From: an uncultured Nitrospiraceae bacterium
GTDB taxonomy: Bacteria > Nitrospirota > Nitrospiria > Nitrospirales > Nitrospiraceae
DNA: 64,000 nt
Direction: 5' to 3'
Assembly (NCBI GenBank): GCA_963730935.1
Contig: CAVSTP010000002.1
Span: 736,001-800,000, forward strand
The translations under genes and the position numbers were made by a program. Positions 1 to 6,931 of the stretch are shown here, in pieces (the first letter of the stretch is position 1; each line of letters begins with the position of its first letter). The notes under the pieces are model-generated. The model saw only the letters and a list, made by a program, of their open reading frames with translations. It made no database searches and was not told the DNA's origin.

Positions 1-682
1 CGATCAGAAGAAGCAACGTGACGGCCGTGGCGCCATTGAAGTCGATGCCGGGTAGAAGCGCAACACTGGCCGTCGATCGGGCGGCAGCGGTGAAGATGTC
101 AGGAAATTCCAACGTGCCATACAGTGAGTAAGCCAATGCGATAGCGGCGAGAAAGGCGACGTCACCAACACGCAAGATGGTGAACGTGCGGAAAGCACCT
201 TCAAGGGTCCCGGCATGGCCATGGTTGTGGATCAGAATATAGAGCAGATAACCCAGGATCTGCCAGAAGACGAACAGCATCATGAGATTTCCGCTTGAGA
301 CCATGCAGAGCAGGACGCAGATCGCAACGCCGATCGTGCTGAAATACCGGCGCTCATGAGGCTCCTGATACATGTAATTGAGCGAGTAGGTGTAGATGAT
401 GGTTCCGATGGCGGAAATCAACACCATCATGACGGCGCTAAGACGATCGATATAGAAGCTGATCGGTAGCGGAAGTATGTTCGCATCAGCGGGATCGTAC
501 AATCGGACCGAAATCGGTCCGCTCGTTGCGACCACGTAGAGAGTCCAGATGGCGCCGAAGAAGGCAGCGCCGAGCGGCCAGGCGCCCATTTTCATTCGCT
601 CGCGTCTGCTAGCCTCACGGCCGGCAAGGACGATGAGGACCGTCAAGAGAGGAAGCAGCGGGACAAGCAGAGCGGCGGTCAT
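1..682 (-). CDS. NuoL/ND5-like proton-conducting membrane subunit, probably DabB/MpsA inorganic carbon transporter subunit (5' part; runs off window start)
   Basis: Not in ORF track. Manual translation from ATG 682: MTAALLVPLLPLLTVLIVL...FYIDRLSAVMMVLISAIGTIIYTYSLNYMYQEPHERRYF...SGNLMMLFVFWQ...TFTILRVGDVAFL, typical NuoL-family motifs; divergent from DUF2294 and carbonic anhydrase. Confidence 0.85.
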   Translation of the reverse strand, partial: MTAALLVPLLPLLTVLIVLAGREASRRERMKMGAWPLGAAFFGAIWTLYVVATSGPISVRLYDPADANILPLPISFYIDRLSAVMMVLISAIGTIIYTYSLNYMYQEPHERRYFSTIGVAICVLLCMVSSGNLMMLFVFWQILGYLLYILIHNHGHAGTLEGAFRTFTILRVGDVAFLAAIALAYSLYGTLEFPDIFTAAARSTASVALLPGIDFNGATAVTLLLLI

Positions 683-880
683 CAGCGCCTCATGTCTCCA
701 TGAAACAAAAAAAGCCAATCGATCCATCGACAGAGTCGATGGGACTCGGTTGGCTTGTACTGCGGCAGGCCGTCAGGCGAACAGCCGGCCACCCTACGGC
801 CTAGAGGAGAAATCCGGCGTCCCGTTTGTCCGATACAACCACTGGAAAAACAGCAGCGCCGTCCGATCCTGGACGGCCTC
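683..880 (-). promoter_or_regulatory. Structured ~200-nt 5' leader (candidate cis-regulatory RNA)
   Basis: Hairpins GCCGTCC/GGACGGC and AGGCCGT/ACGGCCT, closing pair TTGTA/TACAA, terminator; TTGACG -35-like hexamer at 911-906. Confidence 0.55.
707..756 (-). terminator. Intrinsic terminator-like hairpin in the 5' leader of the NuoL/DabB-like gene (attenuator)
   Basis: Minus strand AAGCCAA-CCGA-GT-CCCATCGAC-TCT-GTCGATGG-A-TCGA-TTGGCTT running into a T7 tract, about 25 nt before the start codon. Confidence 0.7.
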
Positions 881-1003
881 ATAGATAATATGATGGCGCG
901 AACGACGTCAATATCGGAGTCGGCCTCAGGCCTCAATACCGCTGCCGGATAGCACGAAAGGCCCACAGCAGACCGAATGGTGAGACAAAGGGCTCACGGC
1001 ATC

Positions 1004-1033
1004 TTGTTCGAAACTCTCTTGCAACTCTATAAT
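1004..1033 (+). promoter_or_regulatory. Putative sigma70 promoter for mpsC-can operon
   Basis: TTGTTC (1004-1009), 18 nt spacer, TATAAT (1028-1033). Confidence 0.45.
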
Positions 1034-1052: not shown

Positions 1053-1397
1053 GTGGAAACAGCGATTCGCAACGCCATCATCAAGTTCGAACAGGAATTC
1101 ATGGGCAGGGGACCGGACGATGTCCGGGCCTCTATCGTCCGTGATCTGGTCGTGGTCCGGCTCAAGGGCGTCCTGACACCTGCCGAACGGCAGTTGGCAA
1201 AAACTGCGGAAGGTGTCGACATGGTGAAGCGACTGCGGCAGAATTTGATTGCGCAGGGGCGTGACAAGCTCTGCGAGCAGGTAAGCGAGATTACGCGAGC
1301 CAAGGTCTTGGGCGTCTTCACCGACATCGATGTCCAGCTGGGCGAGCGCGTGTTCGTGTTCACGATGGACCGAGAACTGCAGAACGGCGGACGGTAA
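1053..1397 (+). CDS. DUF2294 / MpsC-family protein
   Basis: EQEFMGRGP...VVVRLKGVLTPAERQL...TDID...GERVFVF signature, 114 aa. Confidence 0.85.
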   Translation: METAIRNAIIKFEQEFMGRGPDDVRASIVRDLVVVRLKGVLTPAERQLAKTAEGVDMVKRLRQNLIAQGRDKLCEQVSEITRAKVLGVFTDIDVQLGERVFVFTMDRELQNGGR

Positions 1398-1403
1398 CCG
1401 GCA

Positions 1404-2051
1404 ATGGAAAAACTCGTCAAAGGATTCCTGAAATTCCGGGGCGAGGTCTTCGGGAAGAAAAAGGACCTCTTCACCCGGCTCTCTCAAAAGCAGGAGCCTC
1501 GCGCGCTGTTCATCACCTGTTCAGATTCCCGTGTGGATCCGACCCTGATGACGCAGGCCGAGCCGGGAGAGCTCTTCATCCTGCGAAATGCCGGCAACAT
1601 GGTGCCGCCCTACGGATCGATGCAGGGCGGGAGCACGGCGACCATCGAATATGCGATGGCTGTCCTCAAGGTTCCTCACATCATCGTCTGCGGCCATACG
1701 GATTGCGGCGTCATGAAGGCGCTCCTGCATCCCGAAGAGGTCCATGACTTGCCCGCCGTTAAAGAATGGGTGGGACAGGCTGAAACCACCAGGCGCCTGA
1801 TGCGGGAACACTACGTCGATCTCGAAGGCAACGACCGCCTGATCAAAACGACCCAGGAAAACGTCAGGGCTCAACTCGATCACCTGCGCACTCACCCCTC
1901 TGTCGCGTTGCAGCTTCGAAAGGGAAAGGTTGATCTCCATGGCTGGGTCTATTCCATTTCGACCGGCGACATCTGGGTCTACGATTTCGGAAGCGAGCAG
2001 TTCACTTCCCTCCTGGAGGAGCCGCCAACGCGGTTGAAAGCGGCCCCCTAG
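1404..2051 (+). CDS. Beta-class carbonic anhydrase
   Basis: CSDSR, RNAGN, HTDCG zinc-ligand motifs, LHGWVY. Confidence 0.95.
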   Translation: MEKLVKGFLKFRGEVFGKKKDLFTRLSQKQEPRALFITCSDSRVDPTLMTQAEPGELFILRNAGNMVPPYGSMQGGSTATIEYAMAVLKVPHIIVCGHTDCGVMKALLHPEEVHDLPAVKEWVGQAETTRRLMREHYVDLEGNDRLIKTTQENVRAQLDHLRTHPSVALQLRKGKVDLHGWVYSISTGDIWVYDFGSEQFTSLLEEPPTRLKAAP

Positions 2052-2070
2052 CCCTGGCATCCTGGTGTCC

Positions 2071-3546
2071 ATGGGCGATCGTCATCTTGAAACCCTCTCG
2101 TTCGACAACACCTATGCCCGGCTCCCGGATGCTTTCCACGCGAAGCTGAACCCCACTCCATTCTCCTCGCCGCCTTATCTGGTCAGTCTCAACGCCGCCG
2201 CTGCCGATCTCATCGACCTCGACCTTGAAGAAGCCAAGAGACCGGAGTTCGCCGCACTCTTCGGCGGCAACATGCTGGCGCCGGGCATGGAGCCGCTTGC
2301 CATGCTCTATTCGGGCCATCAATTCGGCGTCTATGTGCCTCAGTTGGGAGATGGCCGCGCCATTCTTTTGGGCGAAGCCACAAATGCACGGGGCGAACAC
2401 TGGGATCTGCATCTCAAAGGAGCGGGGATGACACCCTTTTCGCGGGACGGCGATGGCCGCGCCGTCTTGCGGTCAACGATACGGGAATATCTGTGCAGTG
2501 AGGCGATGCACGCGCTCGGCATTCCCACCACACGAGCCTTGTGCATCGTCGGCAGCGACGACAAGGTATACCGCGAACAGGTCGAAACCGGTGCGACACT
2601 GCTGCGTATGGCGCCCTCGCATGTGCGATTCGGCACCTTCGAGATCTTTTATTATCGCCGCCAACACGAACATCTCAAGATTCTGGCCGACTATGTCATC
2701 GACAGTCATTACGCTCACCTTCGAGAGGCCACGGAGAAATATGCGGTCTTTTTTGGCGAGGTGGTCGAGCGCACGGCAAAGTTGATTGCGCGCTGGCAGG
2801 CGGTCGGCTGGGCGCACGGCGTCATGAATACCGACAACATGTCGATTCTGGGCCTGACGCTCGACTATGGGCCGTTCGGCTTCATGGACGACTATGATGC
2901 CGGCCTCATCTGCAATCATTCGGATCATAACGGACGTTATGCCTTCAATCAGCAGCCGTATATCGGATTGTGGAATCTCAGCTGTCTCGCCCAGGCGTTG
3001 CTGCCACTCGCAGACAAAGAGGCATTGAAAGCGGCACTCGATTCCTACATGCCGACGCTCGAGCGCGAGTATCGAGCCCTCATGCGGGCCAAGCTCGGCC
3101 TAACACAAGAACGGGGAGATGACGACGAACTGATCCGCGATTTCCTAGGCCTGCTCCAGGGGAGTCATGCCGACTTCACGATTGTGTTCCGCGAGATGGG
3201 CAGGTTCTCGTCACAACCGGGAATGAAGAACGAACATTTACGCGAGCATTTCCTGAACCGCGACCGGTTCGATGAGTGGGCAGGGCGTTACCGCGATCGC
3301 TTGCAGAGCGAGGGGGGCCGGGACGAGGAGCGGCAGGACGCCATGAACCGGGTCAACCCGAAGTATGTGCTCCGAAATTACCTGGCCCAGCACGCGATCG
3401 AAAAGGCGCAGCAAAAAGATTTTGCCGAGGTGGACCGCCTTTTTACGCTTCTGCAACACCCCTATACCGAGCAGCCTGGAATGGACGCCTACGCCGCTCC
3501 TCCGCCCAATTGGGGCAAGCACTTAAGCGTGAGCTGCTCCTCTTAG
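2071..3546 (+). CDS. selO: Protein adenylyltransferase SelO (YdiU)
   Basis: YSGHQFG, LGDGRA, LKGAG.T, HGVMNTDN, NPKYVLRNY, C-terminal SCSS. Confidence 0.95.
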   Translation: MGDRHLETLSFDNTYARLPDAFHAKLNPTPFSSPPYLVSLNAAAADLIDLDLEEAKRPEFAALFGGNMLAPGMEPLAMLYSGHQFGVYVPQLGDGRAILLGEATNARGEHWDLHLKGAGMTPFSRDGDGRAVLRSTIREYLCSEAMHALGIPTTRALCIVGSDDKVYREQVETGATLLRMAPSHVRFGTFEIFYYRRQHEHLKILADYVIDSHYAHLREATEKYAVFFGEVVERTAKLIARWQAVGWAHGVMNTDNMSILGLTLDYGPFGFMDDYDAGLICNHSDHNGRYAFNQQPYIGLWNLSCLAQALLPLADKEALKAALDSYMPTLEREYRALMRAKLGLTQERGDDDELIRDFLGLLQGSHADFTIVFREMGRFSSQPGMKNEHLREHFLNRDRFDEWAGRYRDRLQSEGGRDEERQDAMNRVNPKYVLRNYLAQHAIEKAQQKDFAEVDRLFTLLQHPYTEQPGMDAYAAPPPNWGKHLSVSCSS

Positions 3547-3706: not shown

Positions 3707-6700
3707 TTGGCCAAACCGCGCGGTGATTCAAAATTAGCGGTGGCGGGTGCGCTGACGCTTGTGCTGGCCATCGCGGGTATCCTGCTGGTCAAGGAGCCTC
3801 TGCGCAGTTCGCGGCCCGTCGGCAGCGGCCTGGAGATGAAGCAGGCCACAGGCGAGCAATTGGTTCGAGCGCGCCTCTGGGAAGATCCCGTTGCGGCGGT
3901 TGAACGGGCGATACGCGAGAAAGCGCCCACCAAGACCGGAAGCGGATTGTCCTTGGCCCAACGGCTCGCCTCTCTGCGTCATGCAATTGCGCATCGCGTC
4001 CGCAGCGGACAGCGCCTGACTGTGCTGCTCGTCACCACGACCGGAGGGCCTTATGTCGAAAGCACCGAATCGCGCCTCCGTGACCGGTACGCCGTCGGCA
4101 CAGCGCTGGGCGCCGCCTGTTATGTCCCTGAGGATGAAAACCGTCTCTCCTTTCTGTATTGGGAACCGGAAAGTCCCGTTCGAGGGCTTCCCTATGAATG
4201 GTACCGGCTCAGAAAAACCCGCTTGTGCAGCCCGGCAGGTACACGGGCAGACAGTATTCTGGTCGTGTGGCTGCCGGACGAGGCCTTGACCAGCGGCTTT
4301 CTCGGGACATTGACTTCGTTGTCTCAAGGACTCGTCTGCCAGGAGACGGCGAAGCAGGAGTGTCCGCTTACCGCAACCACGCCTCCTCTCGTGCGATTGG
4401 ATCCCGCCTTGCAGCGGGCGGTGTCTTTCAAAATCATCGGGCCCCGGAGTTCGTCCGCCTACCGCGGGCTTCTCGACGAGGCCGGGCGCCTTTATGGATC
4501 TCCGCATCCGGACGTCGGGACCTGGCCCAACGCCGACGGCGCGATCGAACTCTACTCGCCCTGGGCCAGCGCGATGAAGGGACTGCTCGCGTATGGCCTC
4601 AAGGCTGAATCCGGCAAGGGCACAGCCTGCGTGACCTATGAAGACTGCGAACACGAATTTCATCGACGGCTTTCGGATGCGAACATTAGGTTGGTCTATG
4701 ACGTCGGCAGCGACGACCTCCGCTTCCAGTCTCTGATTGCCGAATTGGAACGAAGGCAGGTTCGCCTCGGCTGGGATGCCGTCATCCTGATCGGGGAATG
4801 GGACTCCTTTTATGGGCGGGCGCTTCCCCTCGAGTTCCGGGCGGCAGCCTGTACGAAAATCGCTACTTTTTCTGAAGCGGATCTCAAGACGATTCAGGTG
4901 CCGATCGATATCAAGCAGTGGTGTCAGACGGTGCCGCAGGCGATCGATCTGCAGATTCAACATCCCGCCGATTATGAATCACTCACTCTCAATGTGTTCC
5001 GCTACAGCTATCTTGGCGGCCTGGATGGAGAAATTCCTGGGGACGATGCCGCCCGCGCAGCACGCGCGGCCAAGGCGGCCGACCAAGGCAAGGATGCCAC
5101 GAGAGACCGGCCGGAAGGCACCGGCCAAACGGACTATGTCAAGGCGCTCGTTGCGCGCATTCATGATGAGGGAGAGGGTGCCAGAGCCATCGGCATCATG
5201 GGGACCGATCCCTACGATGCGCTCCTCATCATCAAGGCCCTGCGCCCTGCCTTTCCGCACGCGATCTTTTTTACCCTCGATTTGGATGCGCGCCATTTGC
5301 ATCCCAGCGAATACAAATCCACGCGCAACATGGTGATTGCCGCACCCTTCGGCCTACAGCTTGAGGGAAATTTTCAGCGAGACGTCCCGCCGTTTCGCAG
5401 CAGTTACCAAACATCGGCGTATTTTGCCGTGTTGCAAGCCGTCGGCCACGTTCGCTGCGAGTTGCACGGTCATCAGCAGCAAACGGCGCCCTGTACGACC
5501 GGTTATCACGTCGCGCTGACACCGGACGATCGGCTCTATGACGCTGGCTCCCATCCGCGTCTATTTGAAGTGGGAAGGGACGGCGCCGTTGACTTGAGCG
5601 TGGTCGAGAAGGAGGGCGTGCGAACGATTCATCCGATGCGGCCCGATCTCGATCATACGGAAGAGATGGGCCAACTCAAGCAAGGCATCGGGTTAGACAA
5701 CACCGCCGTTGCGGTCATGTTGCTCGTCGCGCTGTTCATTGGAAGTATCATCGCCTGGAGCAATCAGCGTCTGTGGCTATGGGTTTCGCGGAATATGCGG
5801 CTCTTGTCTACCATTGGGCTTATTGTGTTGGCCGCATTCTCGGCCTTTCTGGCATTAGGCGGGGTTTCTGCTTTGCTTGCAGGTCATGATGAAGGCGAGC
5901 CATTCTCGTTGACTGCTGGAGTGAGTGTCTGGCCGAGCGAATTGATTCGTCTCTTCGTCGTCGTGCTCTGCCTGGTGTTGCTTGCAAACGGGTCGCGCGA
6001 CCTGCTCAAGAACGGCGACCGCATTACGGATGCCTTTCTGTTCCAAGACGAGTCTGGATTTCAGGGCTTTTCACTGAAGAGCTTCTGGACCAACCTCAAG
6101 CGGGTCTATCATCCGGCCGCGACGATGACCGCGACGACGGTCGATCAAGCCTGGTCGTGGTATCGCGAGGCTAGCAAACCGGCACAGTGGATGACGCGAA
6201 CGGTTCTGTTGTTCATGCTGTATATCGGGATGATGTGGCTCTTAGGCTACTATGTCCTGGACGAGGAGTACATTCATCCCTGCCGCGGTCAGCTGAGTTG
6301 CCGAGTGGACTGGATTATGACCGTGGCCAGCACGGCCTTGGTGGTATTTCTCAACCTTGCCGTGTTCGACGCGGTGATGTTATGCCGCCGCTGGATCAGC
6401 TGGGTCACGGCGTCGACAGGCGGCTGGTCTCAACAGGTGCAGGAACAGTATCTCGTCGATTATGGCTTGAGTGAGACTCAGAAGGCCGAATTCGACAAGC
6501 TCAAGCATTTGGCCGTCGTAGACCTGATCGGACAGCGGACTGAAGTAGTAAATCGCCTGATCCGGTATCCATTTATTGCCTTGATCATCCTGATCGCCGG
6601 GCGTAACGATTACTTCGACATCTGGAATTACCCCACTCTTTTACTGCTCTCGTGGGCATTGAACGTGCTGCTGGCGTTGCTGGCCGCATATTTACTGTAT

Positions 6701-6931
6701 CAGGCGGCGAGCCAGGCCAAGGCCGCAATGCTGGATGGCCTCAGCAGGAAGATGGTGCAGGTCTTGGGCAGCGGCAAAGACCACGACCTCCGAATGAAGC
6801 AGGTTCAATTTATTATCGACAGAGTGGAAGCCCATGAACAAGGCGCATTCGTGCCTCTTTACCAGCAGCCGGTCATCGAGTCGTCGCTGTACGGCCTCGT
6901 GGCGCTTCTTCAATACCTGTACGTGCGATAA
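3707..6931 (+). CDS. Large uncharacterised membrane protein: N-terminal anchor, ~640-aa Cys-rich extracytoplasmic region, ~7-8 C-terminal TM helices
   Basis: 1074-aa ORF, TTG start after AGGAG; hydrophobic segments read by eye. Confidence 0.8.
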   Translation: MAKPRGDSKLAVAGALTLVLAIAGILLVKEPLRSSRPVGSGLEMKQATGEQLVRARLWEDPVAAVERAIREKAPTKTGSGLSLAQRLASLRHAIAHRVRSGQRLTVLLVTTTGGPYVESTESRLRDRYAVGTALGAACYVPEDENRLSFLYWEPESPVRGLPYEWYRLRKTRLCSPAGTRADSILVVWLPDEALTSGFLGTLTSLSQGLVCQETAKQECPLTATTPPLVRLDPALQRAVSFKIIGPRSSSAYRGLLDEAGRLYGSPHPDVGTWPNADGAIELYSPWASAMKGLLAYGLKAESGKGTACVTYEDCEHEFHRRLSDANIRLVYDVGSDDLRFQSLIAELERRQVRLGWDAVILIGEWDSFYGRALPLEFRAAACTKIATFSEADLKTIQVPIDIKQWCQTVPQAIDLQIQHPADYESLTLNVFRYSYLGGLDGEIPGDDAARAARAAKAADQGKDATRDRPEGTGQTDYVKALVARIHDEGEGARAIGIMGTDPYDALLIIKALRPAFPHAIFFTLDLDARHLHPSEYKSTRNMVIAAPFGLQLEGNFQRDVPPFRSSYQTSAYFAVLQAVGHVRCELHGHQQQTAPCTTGYHVALTPDDRLYDAGSHPRLFEVGRDGAVDLSVVEKEGVRTIHPMRPDLDHTEEMGQLKQGIGLDNTAVAVMLLVALFIGSIIAWSNQRLWLWVSRNMRLLSTIGLIVLAAFSAFLALGGVSALLAGHDEGEPFSLTAGVSVWPSELIRLFVVVLCLVLLANGSRDLLKNGDRITDAFLFQDESGFQGFSLKSFWTNLKRVYHPAATMTATTVDQAWSWYREASKPAQWMTRTVLLFMLYIGMMWLLGYYVLDEEYIHPCRGQLSCRVDWIMTVASTALVVFLNLAVFDAVMLCRRWISWVTASTGGWSQQVQEQYLVDYGLSETQKAEFDKLKHLAVVDLIGQRTEVVNRLIRYPFIALIILIAGRNDYFDIWNYPTLLLLSWALNVLLALLAAYLLYQAASQAKAAMLDGLSRKMVQVLGSGKDHDLRMKQVQFIIDRVEAHEQGAFVPLYQQPVIESSLYGLVALLQYLYVR

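Follow-up and report, generated by a model that had tools for sequence, protein, structure and literature searches.

A conserved transcription attenuator beside mpsC points to an RNA switch for inorganic carbon supply

The locus described here bears on how inorganic carbon is sensed, both in chemolithoautotrophs such as Nitrospira and in heterotrophs with MpsAB/DAB transporters. We analyzed a 64,000-nucleotide stretch of a Nitrospiraceae genome (the window; G000:C2:736001-800000, G000 being the source genome), in which a minus-strand operon ordered dabB1-dabB2-ND4-like-dabA-PII-like runs past the window edge, as read from the open reading frames of the genome. Its first gene encodes a dabB/mpsA-like membrane subunit (1..682, start at 682; PF00662 plus PF00361) preceded by an RBS-like GAGGCG at 691-686, its dabA matches PF10070 at G000:C2:728726-731800, and the small gene listed after dabA we take, from sequence likeness, to be PII-like. 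On the plus strand, divergent from dabB, lies the single mpsC (DUF2294) of G000 (1053..1397; PF10057, E 1.5e-34), whose product is a candidate RNA-binding regulator, followed by a gene for a beta-class carbonic anhydrase (1404..2051; PF00484, E 2.4e-48). In many relatives a SelO-family gene comes after the carbonic anhydrase (window 2065-3546); the next gene in the window (3707-6931) encodes a 1074-aa membrane protein, without annotation here. RNA runs yielded four contig sets of depth 2-9 over parts of the leader and the genes, one of which crosses the terminator; they are uninformative on ends, strand and level.

Folding and sequence comparison identify the dabB leader as a real, conserved transcription attenuator with mutually exclusive, covarying structures, all on the minus strand. 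A promoter-like pair (885..911), TTGACG at 911-906 and TATTAT at 890-885, has TTGAC and TATTA conserved in 26 aligned leaders and would place the transcription start near 879-875; a sigma-70 scan did not list it because its two boxes stand 15 nt apart. Of 121 family genomes searched at DNA level, 90 gave a match, the one tally that includes the three unpublished genomes G006, G053 and G076; 30 loci were returned, and the 26 with the dabB start make up the alignment. About 50 nt upstream of the -35 box, between both divergent promoters, a motif like GGYCTTTCGGRCC is conserved (window 960-1010, with equivalents in L002-L025); it could be bound by a protein or belong to the mpsC leader. An upstream helix, P1 (816..860), is found in Nitrospiraceae leaders and belongs to the RNAalifold structure of the same alignment; sequence conservation is low and changes are compensatory. 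Across 22 sequences, 11 of its 12 pairs show two-sided change, and 87% of its cells are paired as against 74.7% in shuffles (0/500 as high) and 36-50% in slid controls.

The conserved antiterminator is a rod (752..801) composed of a GGC/GCC base, an N/AA loop, GUA/URC, a GG/AG 2x2 loop and a 9-bp variable stem. In 85 sequences 90.7% of its cells are paired (slid controls 21-47%), and 77 cells carry two-sided changes versus 18 in shuffles; this covariation sits in the upper stem, and the basal GGC/GCC is conserved, without two-sided change in Nitrospirales. The core consensus reads GGC-N-GTAGGGY-stem-CAGTRCAAGCC, and the terminator then opens with the same AAGCC. This intrinsic terminator (703..756; -23.4 kcal/mol) consists of a stem at 756-712, which shares its opening AAGCC with the antiterminator, and a T-run at 713-703; across homologs its base pairs are kept and its upper stem varies. 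Since the basal GGC (801-799) and GCC (754-752) of the rod sequester the start of the terminator, the two structures are mutually exclusive. The stretch 890-700 folds with a z of -3.61, and none of 200 shuffles was equally stable. Within 801-703 the terminator form (-46.4 kcal/mol) is favored over the antiterminator form (-41.5 kcal/mol) by 4.9 kcal/mol. Of 86 homologs, 76 carry the 5' GG, and in these the median advantage of the terminator form is 6.4 kcal/mol (0.5-12.6); the remaining 10, which lack it, are mostly SulP leaders in which, by eye, a shifted GACC could pair deeper in the terminator arm. The rod is fully transcribed before the 3' strand of the terminator. In this genome a GGCC close to the inferred 5' end (877-874) is complementary to the GGCC at the rod foot (801-798), and the two could form an anti-antiterminator; the upstream GGCC is not conserved among the 26 aligned leaders.

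A preliminary description of this DNA had read the leader as a terminator-based switch on an inorganic-carbon transporter operon and as no named riboswitch. That reading is supported: the stem and T-run just before the start are real, conserved covarying structure (rod 801-752, helix 860-816) lies upstream of homologs, and the Rfam check has now been run. Rfam 15 gave no match at gathering threshold in the window, none at E up to 10 on 600-1100 and none in 20 homologous loci; on 16 loci of the divergent type described below it returned just an unrelated Fst antitoxin RNA. The pairings proposed at the time did not hold. The strings it quoted do stand at their coordinates (TTGTA 838-834, TACAA 759-755, GGGAC 823-819, GTCCC 745-741), but when its helices were scored on the 25 other rows of the MAFFT alignment, the first hairpin (GCCGTCC/GGACGGC; 41% of cells paired) and the TTGTA/TACAA helix (39%) were each kept in 2 of 25 homologous leaders, and the suggested GGGAC/GTCCC antiterminator (34%) in 0 of 25, the conserved competitor being GGC 801-799 with GCC 754-752. 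Its inner AGGCCGT/ACGGCCT stem (69% of cells paired) was kept in 8 of 25: the 3' strand belongs to the conserved stem, but its partner there is a GGCCGGC-like strand. A simple terminator scan had missed the long bulged stem at 756-712 and listed only that first hairpin.

How far does the element extend? Of 150 Nitrospirales genomes, model R1 found the core in 122. It precedes dabB, dabA, SulP or Mrp genes and occurs in up to three copies per genome, the three-copy genomes carrying it before SulP, dabA and an Mrp operon; in a phylum-wide set R1 matched 22 of 150 genomes, every one of them Nitrospirales. A GTDB pattern scan returned at least 122 stretches, 116 of those listed being titled Nitrospirota, and one titled Nitrosospira has the same locus; most of those viewed precede dabB with a divergent mpsC, and others dabA or a SulP-family transporter. 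The non-Nitrospirota matches L158, L185, L191, L197 and L209 were judged to be chance. Alignment A4 was made without L158 and L197, and leaving out two mis-anchored rows took it from 87 to 85 of 89. Within G000, blastn, the pattern and model R1 found no paralog. A loose descriptor, which passed 14 of 122 terminators in G000, was dropped; a strict one run over 4.05 Mb gave 2 matches, this element and one weak background match.

A metagenome scan, with a pattern that did not include the 5' GG, the stem or the terminator, gives an independent check on those features. It gave at least 118 matches; among those listed, 59 have a terminator, 56 have none and 3 are cut off. The 5' GG occurs in 57 of the 59 terminator-bearing but in 11 of the 56 terminator-less matches listed, and the mean inner stem among them is -16.3 kcal/mol with a terminator as against -6.1 without; two of the 59 look like chance. 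Downstream genes in the metagenome set also include MrpE-like and CBS plus NhaD-like ones (NhaD-like in L101 by likeness).

Several arrangements around these copies deserve mention in their own right. In some genomes the whole element recurs, ahead either of a second dabB or of a SulP gene that lies downstream of the dab operon (L176:884-959 and 2913-3003; L186, L226). In many Nitrospirales there is also a second, more distant dabB-dabA-PII operon, which has neither the element nor an adjoining mpsC (L344, L347-L349, L351-L354). In genus g40, several members with small genomes have a dabA that is frameshifted or reduced, and mpsC too is missing from some of these (L301:7995-10972 in G251; G183; L309 in G205), and an NhaR-like LysR gene and an NhaD gene stand directly upstream of element copies (L301, L304, L042, L101), which ties Na+ handling to carbon genes there.

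Reading around mpsC in genomes that R1 missed revealed a divergent form, GG-NN-GA...UA-R-GCC at the rod base, again overlapping a terminator, beside mpsC in other Nitrospirota, Planctomycetota and Bacillota. It precedes dabB and mpsC in families f3 and f13; operons for isocitrate dehydrogenase, ATP-citrate lyase and carbonic anhydrase in families f12 and f17; PEP carboxykinase in Planctomycetota; an SbtA-family permease in Anoxybacillus; and an MFS gene in Acetoanaerobium. Across phyla this basal motif alone is invariant and the upper rod changes: outside Nitrospirales the upper loop and spacing vary, with 3 rather than 9 pairs above the base. In the 20 divergent elements 15 of 18 pairs covary, partly by construction because the elements were picked by eye, and one two-sided change falls within the three basal pairs. 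Model R2, trained solely on these 20 non-Nitrospirales elements, ranked 804-747 first of 35 matches in the 64-kb window (E 0.0059, next 0.98; E-values rough), which argues that the Nitrospirales and divergent elements form one family. R1 fails to reach the divergent type, and R2, run at genome level with strict filters, missed every Nitrospirales genome and one of its own training records.

In Nitrospirota the genes that follow held-out R2 matches encode ATP-citrate lyase, isocitrate dehydrogenase and carbonic anhydrase, and some of these matches are on contigs away from mpsC; the four isocitrate dehydrogenase labels rest on likeness to a Pfam-confirmed one (that in G144 on its start only), and one weak match has no terminator. 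Among 101 Planctomycetota genomes, 8 have mpsC, and R2 matched 12: 7 mpsC-positive (6 in training), one with a good element in which no mpsC was found (G314, completeness not given), and 4 spurious, namely simple repeats in G336 and three weak matches without terminators. In Planctomycetota the held-out copies lie before ice-binding-like, baeRF3 and GH94 genes; the link to carbon is thus strong without being universal. The Bacillota sample comprised 7 plasmid-collection records, 5 of them opened; in the mpsA leader of a Staphylococcus plasmid a terminator is present, and neither the descriptor nor R2 found the element. Tandem pairs, each element with its own terminator, lie ahead of dabB, isocitrate dehydrogenase and ATP-citrate lyase genes (L341:8328-8518; L343:11763-11968; L316:1927-2105) and could give a sharper response.

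Which known system does this resemble? RAT hairpins, recognized by BglG, SacY and LicT, are imperfect hairpins with two internal loops, and their regulators are encoded nearby and dimeric. The element is alike in that anatomy, in having a regulator candidate next door (dimeric by prediction, see below), and in a 3' base that overlaps the 5' arm of an intrinsic terminator, as described for RAT (PMC5393181). It also shows a feature general to protein-dependent attenuators, a mutually exclusive terminator and antiterminator conserved with covariation. RAT systems differ in serving sugar PTS genes, whereas the targets here are carbon uptake and carboxylation genes, MpsC shows no recognized fold and the RNA has no Rfam match; the CAT_RBD domain (PF03123) was found in 0 of 5 carriers (G000 and four others), compared with 4 of 14 control genomes. 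The Na+-I (DUF1646), Li+-I (nhaA-I) and Na+-II riboswitches are likewise small, terminator-coupled ON switches, some with Na+/H+ antiporter targets, and the GGGY...CAG run at the stem foot resembles, by eye, published constructs (PMC9337991, PMC9646797). In those classes the competitor of the terminator is a second hairpin (P2) whose loop is G-rich and conserved; here the terminator directly follows the rod, and membership was rejected for want of a P2 between them, again comparing constructs by eye. The element thus works like a RAT-type protein-dependent antiterminator, yet stands outside that family and outside the Na+ and Li+ riboswitches. In S. aureus, RsaX05 is a promoter-plus-terminator element annotated 'Cis-acting leader of ndhF?' (PMC2790875); it resembles our leader in lying, with promoter and terminator, ahead of a CO2-responsive mpsA (ndhF) operon with mpsC, a likeness drawn from a table row. 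The target set is also similar to that of the cyanobacterial low-carbon regulon under NdhR/CcmR, which covers SulP and SbtA bicarbonate transporters, NDH-like CO2 uptake and an Mrp antiporter; that regulon answers to a LysR-type DNA-binding repressor, in contrast to the RNA attenuation seen here.

We propose, leaning towards this reading with modest confidence on comparative evidence, that the leader is a transcription attenuator worked by MpsC, with antitermination under low inorganic carbon. MpsC, probably as a dimer, would bind the purine-rich loops at the rod base in the nascent RNA and hold GGC on GCC, blocking the terminator. When CO2 or bicarbonate is short, polymerase would read into dabB-dabA; when it is plentiful, MpsC would release and the transcript would end near 705. 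The signal could be HCO3-/CO2 itself or a metabolite that reports inorganic carbon. RNA binding by MpsC, the signal and the direction of control are all inferred, the last two being the least certain steps. The preliminary description had listed CO2/HCO3-, pH, Na+ or a protein as candidate inputs, of which a protein, the divergent mpsC product, best fits the comparative data, and Na+ or Li+ riboswitch membership fails. Among the points in favor of antitermination by MpsC are that the terminator is the more stable form, which fits default termination; that the element family adjoins mpsC, mostly ahead of genes for inorganic-carbon uptake or carboxylation; and that an invariant small basal motif beneath an upper rod that changes across phyla would fit a protein site better than a ligand pocket.

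A dimer of MpsC is also predicted from structure. Its AF2 model has a pLDDT of 95.4, and the homodimer scored 0.48 against 0.01 for the best control, with runs agreeing in 100% of contacts at pLDDT of at least 85; among solved pairs 20 of 30 came up to the mark used, and among single chains 1 of 23. In this predicted homodimer the interface comprises strands 27-36 and 86-104, leaving the conserved GRGP 18-21, K59 and R62 outside as candidate RNA or ligand contacts. Against an RNA-binding role, no RNA-binding fold was recognized by Foldseek (best E 0.017) or VIA (best Z 7.7, within background), and sequence and Atlas searches gave no solved relative and nothing clear. B. subtilis YbcI appears in a UV-crosslinked RNA-binding fraction (UV+/UV- 15.5, 3.8, not defined, 2.5; PMC12456014), a weak listing because the list runs to 1520 proteins. 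A term search of PMC12591593 gave no mention of MpsC, bicarbonate or CO2, and the available parts of PMC7857571 have no bearing on the leader.

Does the element travel with mpsC? Among 150 Nitrospirales genomes, 110 have both, 7 mpsC only, 12 the element only and 21 neither, in a hand tally of kin that are not independent; the element thus occurs in 110 of 117 genomes with mpsC versus 12 of 33 without, the latter mostly weak matches (best E above 1e-4 in 8 of the 12, compared with 3 of the 110). Of the 7 mpsC-only matches, two have internal stops, and in G114 dabA is lost and an SbtA-family gene without the element lies opposite mpsC. In G059 mpsC is lost from this very locus, and the element there lacks AAGCC and the terminator. 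In family f13, DabA is present in 27 of 27 genomes and mpsC in 2, and R2 matches exactly those 2, both from its training set. MpsC was absent from 251 genomes of the phylum of G257 and from viral contigs. Linkage and kinship inflate these counts, and since element and mpsC are physically linked in most loci, joint loss can be a single deletion. That leaves room for a further account, in which another protein or no regulator is involved, the leader being a fixed attenuator or a short RNA and the mpsC link shared operon history. We regard it as improbable: element and mpsC are found together in three phyla, each time ahead of unrelated genes; mpsC-positive genomes also have copies on contigs that do not carry mpsC; the conserved 5' GG can serve only antitermination; and the five genomes tested have no BglG-type CAT domain.

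Genomes without mpsC weigh against MpsC antitermination, G314 among them. In 11 copies from 10 genomes with no or a weak mpsC match, the terminators are mostly intact; by eye, about six rods are damaged and about five nearly intact, the latter including the first copy in G615 and those in G670, G690 and G698. On rechecking, G670 holds a broken mpsC remnant, and no mpsC was found in G615 (one contig, 99% complete), G698 or G690 (220 contigs). Such intact-looking elements suit a direct riboswitch, in which the rod itself binds bicarbonate, an alkali ion or a metabolite accumulating on stalled carboxylation, thereby blocking the terminator, with mpsC only a co-regulated neighbor. So do the nearly invariant loop letters in Nitrospirales, the ON-switch layout like that of Na+ riboswitches (PMC9337991) and the copies before Mrp or near NhaD/NhaR, which fit an ion or pH signal. 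Mrp, CBS plus NhaD-like, MFS, ice-binding-like, baeRF3 and GH94 genes, which lack a plain carbon link, also count against MpsC antitermination, as does the Staphylococcus plasmid leader in which the element was not found. The Nitrospirales core, too, varies less than a simple protein site might require, although its letters were set by the search patterns. We nevertheless judge a direct riboswitch unlikely: the upper loop and spacing vary outside Nitrospirales as set out above, matches weaken where mpsC is missing, and a single rod with a 3-bp switch helix would make a small pocket.

Published work on S. aureus bears on the direction of control. A delta-mpsC strain grows normally in air and mpsAB alone complements E. 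coli, and mpsA is lower at 5% CO2 (PMC6689103). The lower mpsA, like the RsaX05 listing, counts in favor of MpsC antitermination. Normal growth is not expected if MpsC were an obligate activator; it fits a direct riboswitch, and together with lower mpsA at 5% CO2 it is accounted for if MpsC is a negative factor that, with CO2 or bicarbonate, promotes the terminator, the first-formed rod giving read-through by default. Such a role would also explain why loss of mpsC is tolerated with terminators kept, and it agrees with the rod being complete before the terminator's 3' strand is made. AAGCC would be protected by merely 2-3 basal pairs, however, the terminator form is more stable, and the conserved motif is present only in the antiterminator form; we consider negative control by MpsC slightly less probable than a direct riboswitch.

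Neither this RNA nor a regulatory role of MpsC is described in the literature searched, which included few subscription papers, and the attenuator family is real and uncatalogued. A 2026 preprint reports that the B. subtilis transporter operon is regulated by medium (bioRxiv 10.64898/2026.09.08.750065), and its available part mentions no riboswitch, terminator, leader or ybcI. Although MpsC carries the name of a pump subunit, transport does not require it (PMC6689103); our finding gives it a candidate job and a 50-nt target, and defines a small regulon in which CO2 uptake and CO2 fixation come together. Standing beside mpsC and for the most part in front of CO2-handling genes, the conserved family suggests that inorganic carbon supply is under an on/off switch not described before. 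A bolder claim, which we put just short of an even call, is that MpsC/DUF2294 and this RNA would be the first known CO2/bicarbonate-responsive antitermination system, spanning at least three phyla and acting on DAB, SulP and SbtA uptake and reductive-TCA carboxylation genes; in its boldest form the rod would sense bicarbonate.

Other relatives of MpsC turned up along the way. A second, divergent MpsC paralog (30-42% identity, without GRGP; L345:9451-9771, L350:14301-14612, L364:1471-1851, L365) has a 3-isopropylmalate/isocitrate-dehydrogenase-like gene nearby in Nitrospira; in Planctomycetota it stands in tandem with canonical mpsC. A distant DUF2294 subfamily precedes the CO2-related formate dehydrogenase genes fdhD and fdhF in Bacillus badius and Alicyclobacillus (L360:5968-7137; L361:3467-6990), where the element is absent. 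On the Anoxybacillus plasmid a second structured leader with a terminator stands before mpsC (L357:7820-7970), mismatching the descriptor and without an Rfam match. A Staphylococcus pettenkoferi plasmid carries a complete mpsA-dabA-mpsC cassette between IS6-family transposases (L359:2490-9102).
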